From assembly GCA_964624065.1 (NCBI GenBank), contig CAZUWF010000001.1, forward strand, positions 35,018 through 99,017: a DNA stretch of 64,000 nt, written 5' to 3'. Position 1 is the first letter of the stretch. Every line of letters starts with the position of its first letter. Source of the DNA: an uncultured Bacteroidales bacterium (GTDB lineage Bacteria > Bacteroidota > Bacteroidia > Bacteroidales > UBA7960). Both the position numbers and the translations under genes were made by a program. This document shows, piece after piece, positions 21,458 to 24,228 of the stretch. Under the pieces are notes generated by a model. It saw nothing but the letters and a program-made list of their open reading frames with translations. It had not been told where the DNA came from and ran no database searches.

Positions 21458-21478
21458 CATTCAATTATTGTGCCAAAG
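21458..21478 (-). promoter_or_regulatory. sigma-54-like -24/-12 element CTTTGGCACAATAATTGAATG upstream of the DUF4476 gene
   Basis: The minus strand reads TGGCAC-N5-TTGA, against the canonical TGGCAC-N5-TTGC. It sits 43 nt upstream of the ATG at 21415. It is near-identical to the element at 24208-24228. Confidence 0.4.
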
Positions 21479-22160
21479 AGTTTTTGTGCAGCTAAATCCT
21501 CCATTAATGCTGGTTTGGGGCTAAAAAACTTCTAAAAGCAAACAATTAATTGCAAATTATCGGGTCGCAAACTCGCATGTAGGTTTTATTTAAAGGTTGA
21601 CAAACAGCGATTGCCTGTGCCTGCGCTAACTTCTTAGTTTAAAACGAAAAAAGGGATAAAATACTGATGAACTTTGCATCTTCTTTAACGGTGCGCAAAA
21701 ATGGGGCACCTCGGTTCTACAGAATTATGGGTCAACCAATTTAATGGAATAAAATTGATGCCCTGATCCTTGAATTGCAGGCAAAATACAATCGGCAATA
21801 TCCCCTCCAACCCAGGTAAACTTGCCTGGCGAACCTACTATGGCGAGTATGGAAAATTTGGTTTGGTACTAACAAGTTACAAGGTTTTGGCCAAGACCCA
21901 CTCCCTCCAAGTTTGTAGAGCAAGAGGCCGCAATCCCAATCGAGAGGCTAGATGCCTTGCAGTTGCCAACTAAAGGTAAATAGGCCTTAAATAGTAGGCA
22001 GAGGGTTGACCCTGATCAAAAAAATCGAAAAAGAAGGAAAAGGAGCAAATGCGAATAGCCAAACCTCCAAATAATTGAAAAAAACCAATGTGAGATAGGC
22101 AGGATGCTTCCTTGCGATGTTCTTTAATTATGAATGATTATTCGACAATTGTATTCAAAC

Positions 22161-22189
22161 AAAAAAGCCGTTTCTGTAAAGAAACGGCT
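22161..22189 (-). terminator. rho-independent terminator of groEL
   Basis: The minus strand reads agccgtttct-ttac-agaaacggct followed by TTTTTT, a 10-bp perfect stem. It starts 24 nt after the groEL stop. Confidence 0.9.
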
Positions 22190-22212
22190 TTCAGGTAATT
22201 TGGGATTGACTT

Positions 22213-23847
22213 TTACATCATTCCGCCCATTCCGCCCATACCGGGGTTCATTGGCATTTCTGGTTTTTCTTCTTTTATCTCGGCAAGAACACACTCGGTG
22301 GTGAGAAGCATACTAGAAATTGAAGCGGCGTTTTCGAGGGCAACGCGGGTTACTTTTGTTGGGTCTATAACACCCGATTTGTAGAGGTTCTCGTAAACTT
22401 CAGTGCGAGCATTGTAACCGAAGTCCTCTTTACCCTCCTTAACCTTTTGAACGACTATAGAGCCTTCTATTCCGGCATTTTCAACAATCATCCTCAATGG
22501 TTCTTCTAGTGCACGACGCACAATGGCTATTCCGGTGTTTTCGTCCTCGTTGTCGCCCTGGAGGATTTCTAGTGCTGCAATTGCCCTTATGTAGGCCACT
22601 CCTCCGCCCGGCACGATGCCTTCTTCAACCGCAGCGCGGGTTGCGTGCAGTGCATCGTCAAAGCGGTCTTTCTTTTCTTTCATCTCCACTTCGCTGGCGG
22701 CACCAACGTAGAGTACGGCAACTCCGCCAGCAAGTTTTGCAAGACGCTCTTGAAGCTTCTCTCTGTCGTAGTCGCTGGTGGTGTTTTCCATCTGACTCTT
22801 GATTTGATTTACGCGAGCCTTTATCATATCCTTGTCGCCCTTGCCACTAACTATGGTGGTATTGTCCTTGTCAATGGTAATCTTTTCGGCCTTTCCTAGG
22901 TGCGAAAGGTCTGCGTTTTCGAGCTTGTATCCTTGCTCTTCGCTTATTACTGTGCCCCCTGTAAGTATTGCTATGTCTTCGAGCATCGCCTTGCGCCTAT
23001 CTCCAAATCCGGGAGCCTTAACGGCTGCAATTTTCAACGAACCGCGGAGTTTGTTCACAACCAATGTTGCAAGGGCCTCGCCATCAACGTCCTCGGCAAT
23101 TATCAACAGGGGCCTTCCCGTTTGAACCACCTTCTCCAAGATTGGCAAGAAGTCTTTCATCGTGCTTATTTTCTTGTCGAAGATCAAGATGAAAGGATCT
23201 TCGTAAACGACCTCCATTTTCTCGGTATCAGTAACGAAGTATGGACTAATGTAGCCACGGTCAAATTGCATTCCTTCTACCACCTTCACGCTGGTTTCTG
23301 TTCCCTTGGCTTCTTCGATTGTGATTACACCTTCCTTTTTTACCTTCGACATTGCCTCGGCAATTAGCTTGCCGATGGAGCTGTCGTTGTTGGCCGAAAT
23401 TGTTGCCACTTGCTCTACCATTTCGTTGCTGTCGCCAACTTCTTTTGATTGGCTCTTGAGGTTTTCTATAACCTTTTCAACTGCCTTGTCTATACCTCTC
23501 TTGAGATCCATAGGGTTGGCACCGGCGGTTACGTTTTTTAGACCATTGTTGAAAATTGCCTGTGCCAAAACCGTGGCAGTTGTAGTGCCGTCACCTGCCA
23601 CGTCGGCAGTTTTGCTTGCGACCTCTTTAACCATTTGGGCACCCATATTTTCAATTGGGTTGGGAAGCTCTATGTCTTTGGCCACGGTTACACCATCCTT
23701 GGTTATTGAGGGAGCACCGAATTTCTTGTCTATGATAACGTTTCTTCCCTTGGGTCCGAGGGTTACCTTTACGGCATTTGAAAGCTTGTCAACTCCAATC
23801 TTTAGGGAGCTGCGTGCATCCATTCCAAAAATAATATCTTTTGCCAT
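22213..23847 (-). CDS. groL: chaperonin GroEL
   Basis: 544 aa. It begins [35 protein letters not shown] and ends with a C-terminal GGMGGMM tail. Confidence 0.99.
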
Positions 23848-23875
23848 TTTTATTTTGATTTTTTAGGGTTCGTGA

Positions 23876-24154
23876 TTAAATGATTGCGAAAATGTCTGAC
23901 TCTCGCATGATTAAGTACTGCGTTCCATCGTACGACAATTCGGTGCCTGCGTATTTTCCGTAAAGAACTTTATCGCCAACCTTTACGGTCATTGGATTGT
24001 CTTTTGTTCCGGAACCTACAGCAACCACGGTTCCTTTTTGTGGTTTTTCCTTAGCGGTATCGGGGATAATTATTCCTCCCGAGGTTTTTTCCTCGGCAGC
24101 TGCCGGCTCAACAAGTACTCGATCTGCCAAAGGTTTGATTTTAACGTCTGCCAT
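23876..24154 (-). CDS. groES: co-chaperonin GroES
   Basis: 92 aa. [12 protein letters not shown]...[22 protein letters not shown]. Confidence 0.98.
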
Positions 24155-24207
24155 CTTTAATAGTTTTTATGTTAAACAAATTTGGATTAAAAAATTTCGA
24201 TAATGAC

Positions 24208-24228
24208 CATTCACAATTCGTGCCAAAG
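24208..24228 (-). promoter_or_regulatory. sigma-54-like -24/-12 element CTTTGGCACGAATTGTGAATG upstream of groES
   Basis: The minus strand reads TGGCACG-N4-GTGA and sits 54 nt upstream of the groES ATG. A sigma-A-like box CAAATTTG (24177-24184) lies between it and the ATG. I found no CIRCE inverted repeat. Confidence 0.4.

Follow-up and report, generated by a model that had tools for sequence, protein, structure and literature searches.

Predicted sigma-54 promoters upstream of groES and of a DUF4476 gene in an uncultured Bacteroidales bacterium, with a candidate enhancer and activator for groES

Two 21-nt elements, one upstream of the chaperonin gene groES and one upstream of a gene encoding a DUF4476 protein, in a 64-kb stretch of DNA from an uncultured Bacteroidales bacterium (contig CAZUWF010000001.1; the window, in what follows, is this whole stretch) raise the question of which sigma factor and which activator these genes would respond to. 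Our analysis indicated that both elements are very probably sigma-54 (RpoN) promoters of a kind already known from Bacteroidota. The pattern CTTTGGCAC-N6-TGAATG had exactly two occurrences in the window, both on the minus strand, at 21458-21478 and 24208-24228, where the minus-strand readings are CTTTGGCACAATAATTGAATG (21478->21458) and CTTTGGCACGAATTGTGAATG (24228->24208) with 15 identical flanking positions. The former points toward the DUF4476 gene and lies 43 nt upstream of its ATGAAA at 21415, and the latter points toward groES and lies 54 nt upstream of its ATG at 24154. The sequences, coordinates, orientation and distances of 43-54 nt to a start codon were all as described in a first-pass annotation of this DNA.

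Sigma-54-type elements and their conservation at groES

Both sites showed the core sigma-54 geometry TGGCAC-N5-(G/T)TGA, with the GG and the G present and the C of the -12 element replaced by A. The pattern TGGCAC-N5-nTGn had four copies on the two strands of the window, of which the remaining two (7339, plus strand; 39995, minus strand) are intragenic, in agreement with the earlier statement that the two elements under study are the only intergenic TGGCAC sites with this extension. The canonical TGGCAC-N5-TTGC had no copy in the whole window. Taken by themselves, these window statistics would suit a chance similarity without function, as four TGGCAC-N5-nTGn sites in 128 kb (both strands) is close to the random expectation, and matches to the 21-nt pattern with no more than two mismatches, of which the two elements are the only ones in the window, were expected 0.24 times and numbered at least two in 4 of 100 shuffles. 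This shuffle test is weak because the pattern was derived from the two sites themselves. The decisive evidence against chance is cross-species conservation, seen for groES in 55 to 79 of 80 loci and for DUF4476 in the window together with five distinct orthologous loci, which contradicts a chance origin and leaves it with almost no probability.

The genome scan with GroES covered 80 Bacteroidota loci from Flavobacteriales, Cytophagales, Sphingobacteriales, Chitinophagales and Bacteroidales, 79 of them with upstream sequence, and the closest GroES match (83% identity) came from a Bacteroidales metagenome-assembled genome. Site sets were chosen by regular expressions, the strict pattern being TGG[CT]A[CT]-N5-nTG within 250 nt upstream and the relaxed pattern TGG[CT]A[CTA]-N5-(Tn or nT)G. 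The strict pattern was found upstream of groES in 55 of the 80 loci, 38-140 nt from the ATG (median ~61), compared with a background density of 0.029 (about 0.02-0.03) per 250 nt over all locus DNA. The relaxed pattern was found in all 79 loci with upstream sequence, a figure to be read with the caveat that its TCG-class sites, described below, may be sigma-A or dual promoters. The consensus of the groES sites was T-TGGCA(C/T)-A-n-T-T-T-n-TG-A. In the 55 strict sites TG is followed by A (35), C (12), T (6) or G (2), while the -12 tetramers of the 79 relaxed sites included nTGA (37), nTGC (13) and TCGn (14), with the canonical TTGC occurring once. The RpoN-like -24/-12 geometry proposed in the first-pass annotation was therefore borne out and is kept upstream of groES in relatives. 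The GA found where -12 normally has GC, which had been noted there as a departure from the norm, is present and is no obstacle, because A is the majority state in Bacteroidota groES promoters and also occurs in promoters with mapped transcription start sites (TSSs). The element before groES is best seen as the local version of a promoter found across the phylum.

Such TSSs were mapped in Flavobacterium psychrophilum by Guerin et al. 2021 (ISME Commun, PMC9723704), who assigned the sigma-54 motif SM4 to groES-groEL, lon, dnaK, grpE-dnaJ, htpG, skp and clpB, the proteostasis regulon forming cluster B254, and to a second group consisting of gliding and exported-protein genes. In the portion of Table S2 of that study available to us, the groS promoter is given as AAAaaatgtcagttttaaatccTTGGCATAATTTCTGAAAAG (core TTGGCATAATTTCTGA, CTGA at -12, TSS at 867211, 5' untranslated region (5'UTR) of 30 nt), and the skp (TTGGCACGATAGTTGAATTT), clpB (TTGGAATAACAATTGACGAT) and lon (ATGGCACAATCCTTGACTTA) promoters all have TTGA at -12. 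The TSS in these mapped promoters lies ~26-27 nt after the T of TGG, and the same spacing predicts TSSs at ~24198-24199 for groES and ~21448-21449 for the DUF4476 gene, the former agreeing with the range of 24197-24203 put forward earlier. A 2025 survey with position-specific scoring matrices (PSSMs) reported significant enrichment of sigma-54 promoters at GroEL, GroES, IbpA, GrpE, DnaJ and DnaK genes of Bacteroidota and Planctomycetota (PMC12316311), and cites a Blattabacterium genome paper (its reference 80) for a reported sigma-54 dependence of B. thetaiotaomicron groES. Because these two papers already describe sigma-54 control of chaperones, including sigma-54 TSSs for groESL, dnaK, grpE-dnaJ, htpG, lon and clpB (PMC9723704), the locus does not represent a new circuit as had been suggested; the window is a further member of the published circuit, and DUF4476 is an additional target family. 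When membership of the Bacteroidota sigma-54 proteostasis regulon is taken as a chaperone or protease target combined with an SM4-type motif, groES-groEL belongs to it and the DUF4476 gene does not.

The 15 identical positions of the two elements exceed the sigma-54 core, which would be in keeping with an operator for a transcription factor common to groES and DUF4476 rather than with a promoter. The bases shared beyond that core (5' CT and 3' ATG) were kept neither in the groES promoters of relatives nor in the DUF4476 orthologues, and the only family-level feature of the 21-mer is the core T-TGGCAC-N5-(T)TG-A. As neither family conserves the CT...ATG extension, the sigma-54 core is to be taken as the actual unit. 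Invariance is confined to the GG and the G at sigma-54 spacing, the sequence is neither palindromic nor repeated, and at the orthologous site the TSS was mapped at the sigma-54 distance (PMC9723704, Table S2 as available), so that an operator function is considered very improbable.

Transcription of groES mainly from a sigma-A promoter, with the sigma-54 element auxiliary or vestigial, would fit the basal expression needed by groESL, which is normally essential, and the first-pass annotation had described a proximal sigma-A-type box in this position. The box in question, CAAATTTG at ~24177-24184, is one mismatch from TAnnTTTG, a type of match that is common in AT-rich DNA, and it was not conserved. 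An exact TAnnTTTG between the -12 element and the ATG was present in none of the strict sigma-54 loci and in 6 of 79 overall, all of them of the Chitinophagaceae-type TCG class, in which a perfect TAccTTTG overlaps the -12 region. In F. psychrophilum basal expression of groS is high, yet the TSS given for it in the available portion of Table S2 is that of the sigma-54 promoter (PMC9723704). A predominantly sigma-A-driven groES is thus regarded as unlikely.

Some of the data nevertheless weigh against the sigma-54 assignment. About 14 of the relaxed sites, mostly from Chitinophagaceae, have TCG at -12 followed immediately by the perfect sigma-A box TAccTTTG, and these may not be sigma-54 sites or may be sigma-A or dual promoters. 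The 80 groES loci are phylogenetically related and their counts are not independent events, though the loci span the phylum. In the window, no Sigma54-domain protein (rpoN) was found among the scanned ORFs of at least 150 aa, and the partial gene downstream of asnS is Nif3-like and not rpoN; the presence of RpoN is implied only because the window encodes a bacterial enhancer-binding protein (bEBP) bearing the GAFTGA motif. For this organism, the sigma-54 assignment of the groES and DUF4476 promoters is a prediction from sequence, and the TSS mapping is that of an orthologous promoter in the literature.

Among the Chitinophagaceae-type loci, L044, L063, L066, L069, L070 and L076 have TGGCAC/TGGTAT-N5-TCGnn upstream of groES, directly followed by a perfect TAccTTTG, and their upstream repeats are TGCCAA and not the TGTCAG described below. 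This arrangement may be an overlapping dual promoter or may mark a lineage that has switched its sigma factor.

The DUF4476 gene and its promoter

A total of 13 DUF4476 homologues were found, and the contigs of five distinct orthologues (37-71% protein identity) were compared with the window. All five orthologous loci carry TTGGCA(C/T)-N5-TTGG, located 45-48 nt before the ATGGAGGA start and ~60 nt before the ATGAAA. When the window was aligned with these five loci, no column before the 5'UTR other than those of T-TGGCA and TTG was invariant, and the sequence farther upstream was unconserved. This alignment reads as a clean phylogenetic footprint of a predicted -24/-12 promoter, in which the -12 element is TTGG in the orthologues and TTGA in the window copy. 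The likely start of the DUF4476 gene is ATGGAGGA at 21430 (MEDHAMKKLL...), and this start region is kept in all orthologues. The database call for the protein (P0001, 255 aa) starts at ATGGGT, 21454, and is probably mis-called because this start is upstream of the predicted TSS. The metagenome scan with the DUF4476 protein returned no relatives, and its 242-aa form was without an exact database entry.

The DUF4476 element is best read as a sigma-54 promoter in its own right, which serves an exported protein and falls into the envelope/exported-protein part of the regulon. The gene was not linked to groEL in other loci, and its promoter has a single TGTCAA, at -127, and no conserved copy. Because this promoter is without the TGTCAG repeats found upstream of groES, the two promoters would have a common sigma factor but probably not a common activator, and the DUF4476 promoter probably relies on another activator or on sites farther away. 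The split between groES and DUF4476 parallels the two co-expression clusters among the SM4 promoters of F. psychrophilum (PMC9723704).

The 690-nt spacer (21479-22162) that separates the DUF4476 promoter from the terminator of groEL contained no ORF of at least 70 aa and did not resemble the spacers of equal length that precede DUF4476 in relatives, and no credible Rfam match was found in this spacer or around either promoter. The groES (24165-24181, minus strand) and DUF4476 (21431-21445, minus strand) leaders have a 5'UTR word in common, (G)TTTAAC-A/T-AAAA, which is invariant in the DUF4476 orthologues. The sequence TTAACCTTAA recurs in Cytophagales groES leaders, and TTAAC was present in 13 of 79 loci.

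Repeats upstream of groES and the neighbouring activator gene

In the groES loci, the 150 nt upstream of the -24 element contained 93 copies of TGTCAG/CTGACA in comparison to 4.1 expected (23-fold), and the shorter TGTCA/TGACA averaged 2.44 per 150 nt in this interval versus 0.34 in the remaining non-ORF DNA of these loci. At least one TGTCA/TGACA was present within 150 nt in 76 of 79 loci and at least two in 62 of 79. Forward repeats start at -17 relative to the T of TGGCA (21 loci) and at -28, -38, -48, -58, -69, -80 and -88, with TGTCA at -19 to -15 in 28 of 79 loci. Their phasing followed a 10.3-bp period (vector strength 0.69; Rayleigh z 54, or 32 once the -17 peak is left out), and the usual repeat unit was TG(T/A)CA-N3-TGTCAG at -25/-17. 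Arrays were also present where secG is not upstream of groES (e.g. L005, L007, L022 and L027).

Metagenome contigs were scanned with the composite pattern TGTCAG-N11-TGGCAYA-N5-TG, which returned 80 loci (L089-L168), some of them ~60% GC and possibly from outside Bacteroidota. In 38 of these 80 hits the first downstream ORF, 55-160 nt away, was a proteostasis gene, encoding GroES (15), DnaK (9), HtpG (9), Hsp20 (2), ClpB (1), a Clp_N protein (1) or a UVR-motif protein (1), and most of the remaining hits resemble chance (high GC or without an ORF). The ClpB promoter, in L153, has two TG(T/A)CA-N3-TGTCAG pairs 21 bp apart. The first-pass annotation had proposed looking for enrichment of its sigma-54-like pattern at heat-shock genes; the composite TGTCAG element was found in the metagenome scan before dnaK, htpG, hsp20 and clpB. 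The composite element was also seen before dnaK or groES on the high-GC contigs L097, L101 and L147 (~59-62% GC), and high-GC Bacteroidota or neighbouring phyla may share the TGTCAG plus sigma-54 arrangement.

The Table S2 sequences of F. psychrophilum that were available place TGTCAG 17 nt upstream of the -24 T at groS and TGTCC at -17 at clpB, and among them the repeat was absent from the non-chaperone sigma-54 promoters remF, panD, muramidase and skp. Within the sigma-54 regulon the repeat thus sets the proteostasis branch apart, and it is a natural candidate for the enhancer of that branch. Searches for the composite TGTCA and sigma-54 arrangement in the rest of the window and in 12 kb of DNA flanking the 80 groES loci gave only noise. 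No mention of an enhancer or of TGTCA was found in PMC9723704 and its supplements, in PMC12316311 or in the further literature searched, which is not proof of novelty, and no activator is assigned to the sigma-54 chaperone regulon in PMC9723704 or PMC12316311.

The window groES upstream region is a weak version of the array. Three of its copies, TGCCAG (-88), CTGACA (-76) and CTGGCA (-68), are part of a hairpin, and those at -28 and -88 are in phase. This hairpin, followed by a T-run, is the strong terminator between secG and groES that had been described earlier (Table 1). In relatives the homologous secG terminator hairpin reads ATGTCAG-n-TGTCA-n-CTGACAT with a T-run, and in flavobacteria ATGCCAGC-TGTCA-GCTGGCAT. 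The stem co-varies between TGTCAG/CTGACA and TGCCAG/CTGGCA (window, L020, L029, L034, L048, L055, L079 and flavobacterial loci), while TGTCA/TGACA stays in or beside the loop, and one sequence seems to double as a terminator and as an array of protein sites.

The gene order bEBP-lptE-hyp217-secG-groES-groEL, in which hyp217 is a conserved uncharacterised orf, was kept in about half of the 80 loci and across at least four orders. A tblastn search with the window proteins placed bEBP, LptE, hyp217 and SecG upstream of groES in 41, 42, 44 and 44 of the 80 loci, respectively. No mention of this conserved order from bEBP to groEL was found in PMC9723704, PMC12316311 or the other literature searched; in F. 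psychrophilum, the PF00158 protein THC0290_0733 lies upstream of lptE (0732) and a few genes from groS (0729) (PMC9723704). The C-terminus of hyp217 (ETLAQIYVQQGFMADAIDIFEKLSAKNPEKSSYFAKIIENLK) is TPR-like by eye, and hyp217 may be a partner of the bEBP.

The bEBP without an N-terminal domain, noted previously on the same strand, was recovered at 26073-27338, 1.85 kb upstream of groES and with GAFTGA present. The 421-aa protein has PF00158 at residues 17-183 and HTH_8 at 378-418, with the AAA+ domain beginning at ~residue 13, a Walker A motif GESGTGKE, an intact GAFTGA loop, a linker of ~110 aa and a C-terminal Fis-type helix-turn-helix (HTH). Matches in the PDB (NtrC1, FleQ, NtrC, ZraR and PspF) align from its residues 13-21, which correspond to residue 140-150 of receiver-containing activators, and the protein is predicted to be without an N-terminal sensory domain. 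It would need to be controlled in trans because it has no such domain. All scores of the bEBP against NCBIfam equivalogs were under the cut-off (TIGR02974, 270.6 versus 443.55 bits; PRK11608, 225.5 versus 529), and its identification as a PspF orthologue was rejected on these scores. The DNA upstream of the bEBP ATG (27327-27364, minus strand) contains TACCTTTG, a perfect sigma-A box, followed by TGACTAATTGTCA, a sequence similar to a TGACA-N3-TGTCA unit; autoregulation through TGACTAATTGTCA was rejected, as TGTCA is not kept upstream of the bEBP gene in 39 loci.

Our tentative reading of these results is that the phased TG(T/A)CA-N3-TGTCAG units are the enhancer of a dedicated heat-shock activator, namely the sensor-less bEBP beside lptE-secG-groESL. 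The repeats are a putative enhancer, and we infer that the neighbouring activator binds them; as a candidate activator of groES, the syntenic bEBP is given a likelihood that at best approaches an even chance. Several observations speak against this assignment. At -17, the modal position, the window groES promoter lacks TGTCAG, and it offers only TGTCG at -28 and the hairpin copies. The repeats begin ~45 nt upstream of the TSS, nearer than most characterised enhancers. The co-variation of the hairpin stem indicates selection for terminator structure, and part of the repeat signal may therefore reflect the hairpin and not a protein site. The 39 bEBP loci examined upstream give no autoregulation signal that would tie the protein to the motif, about half of the groES loci are without bEBP-groES linkage, and other bEBPs exist in the phylum.

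Alternatively, the groES sigma-54 promoter may be real but activated by a bEBP encoded elsewhere, with the neighbouring bEBP serving, for example, the lptE-secG envelope operon and its linkage to groES being historical. This is a credible possibility, although it too falls short of being probable. The promoter and repeats were still present at those groES loci that are not beside the bEBP, the bEBP gene itself has no conserved TGTCA site, and F. psychrophilum has one rpoN and three PF00158 proteins, none of which has been assigned to targets (PMC9723704). In contrast, the bEBP-groES cluster is conserved across at least four orders, a sensor-less activator suits a universally present housekeeping or stress regulon, and no further activator candidate was visible in the window.

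In the mechanism that we propose for groES, RNA polymerase (RNAP) with sigma-54 would form a closed complex on TGGCAC-N5-nTG(A), which would be remodelled by an AAA+ activator bound to TG(T/C)CA(G) repeats on one helix face, roughly -45 to -115 from the TSS. Transcription would begin near 24198, some 26-27 nt beyond the T of TGGCAC. As activator in such a scheme, the likeliest candidate would be the sensor-less bEBP encoded 1.85 kb upstream in the bEBP-lptE-orf-secG-groES-groEL cluster, and its control in trans might occur by chaperone titration, an idea that draws purely on analogy with PspA-PspF, DnaK-sigma32 and GroEL-HrcA. Whichever activator is used, the promoter places groES-groEL, and in relatives dnaK, htpG, hsp20, clpB and lon, under enhancer-dependent sigma-54, where other phyla use sigma-32 or HrcA/CIRCE. 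Were the repeats indeed the enhancer bound by the sensor-less bEBP, this protein would be the master regulator of the response to unfolded protein in the Bacteroidota cytoplasm, possibly with a role also in other members of the Fibrobacterota-Chlorobiota-Bacteroidota (FCB) group, and would be controlled in trans, e.g. by chaperone titration, and not through a sensory domain.

Features of the locus and comparison with known systems

Table 1. Annotated and predicted features of the groES and DUF4476 region; coordinates are window positions.
Feature	Coordinates	Strand	Evidence and remarks
DUF4476 protein	20687..21430	-	Pfam PF14771, E 7e-21; signal-peptide-like N-terminal segment
Predicted DUF4476 sigma-54 promoter	21458..21478	-	-24 TGGCAC 21475-21470; -12 TTGA 21464-21461
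Intrinsic terminator after groEL	22163-22192	-	terminator scan
groEL (Cpn60), 544 aa	22213..23847	-	Pfam PF00118, E 8.9e-82
groES (Cpn10), 92 aa	23876..24154	-	Pfam PF00166, E 2.4e-35
Predicted groES sigma-54 promoter	24208..24228	-	-24 TGGCAC 24225-24220; -12 GTGA 24214-24211
TGTCG, degenerate TGTCA(G) copy	24249..24253	-	at -28 relative to the -24 T; phase matches the array of relatives
secG terminator hairpin, TGCCAGAATG-CCTGA-CATTCTGGCA and T-run	24289..24313	-	terminator scan
secG	24339-24674	-	Pfam
hyp217, conserved uncharacterised orf, 217 aa	24685-25338	-	no Pfam/NCBIfam family
lptE	25348-25863	-	Pfam
Sigma-54 activator (bEBP)	26073..27326	-	ORF to 27338, likely ATG 27326; Pfam PF00158, E 1.8e-67, and PF02954

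Two observations concern other parts of the window. The release-factor ORF (11208-12050, plus strand, 280 aa) matches PCRF only from profile position 70, and an identical 280-aa call was present in L082. The programmed +1 frameshift of prfB is well known, and by analogy the N-terminus of this release factor is probably encoded in another frame. A mevalonate-pathway cluster (36379-40897, plus strand) contains HMG-CoA reductase, diphosphomevalonate decarboxylase-like and GHMP kinase genes, and two ORFs beside them (35330-36331 and 37812-38816) were without a Pfam match.

Bacteroidota are a dominant phylum of gut, soil and marine habitats, and the elements described here add one genome and the DUF4476 target family to a published regulon. 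It is important to note that A instead of C at -12 is normal in Bacteroidota, and PSSMs trained on Proteobacteria will under-call such sites. The TGTCAG-N11-TGGCAY arrangement provides a cis-signature that separates the proteostasis sub-regulon from other sigma-54 promoters, and with one conserved sensor-less activator gene as the obvious candidate, heat and unfolded-protein sensing in Bacteroidota becomes directly testable.

The closest described counterpart is the F. psychrophilum locus, with which the window has in common the gene order bEBP, lptE, ..., secG, groS, groL and a motif with A at -12. The window differs from it in lineage, in having GTGA at -12, in having no TGTCAG at -17, and in its DUF4476 target, which is not named in the tables of PMC9723704. 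In comparison to classical proteobacterial promoters (TGGCAC-N5-TTGCW; glnAp2 and pspA), the window elements have the same upstream position and orientation, a GG and a G 10 nt apart, an intact TGGCAC and a GAFTGA activator encoded nearby, whereas the -12 element has A for C and the function is cytoplasmic proteostasis and not nitrogen metabolism, flagella or phage shock.

The NtrC enhancer at glnAp2 consists of five sites at about -140 to -45. The groES repeats are likewise several short sites on one helical face close to the promoter, which fits the assembly of an oligomeric activator, but their motif is TGTCAG, often as TG(T/A)CA-N3-TGTCAG, and protein binding to them is putative. Like PspF, the bEBP begins almost directly with its AAA+ domain, has a C-terminal HTH and carries no receiver, GAF or PAS domain. 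Unlike PspF, its AAA+ domain is closer to those of NtrC1, FleQ and ZraR, the linker is ~110 aa long and no pspA-like gene is adjacent.

To our knowledge, Bacteroidota are without the textbook heat-shock regulators RpoH and HrcA. The CIRCE operator (TTAGCACTC-N9-GAGTGCTAA) had no match anywhere in the window with up to three mismatches allowed, in accordance with the first-pass annotation. The gene set under sigma-54, comprising groESL, dnaK, htpG, clpB, hsp20 and lon, is the same as that of the sigma-32 (RpoH) and HrcA/CIRCE systems, and by analogy the logic is probably also the same, namely the sensing of unfolded protein. The means would differ, as control is exerted through an enhancer-dependent sigma-54 and not through an unstable sigma-70-family factor or a repressor.

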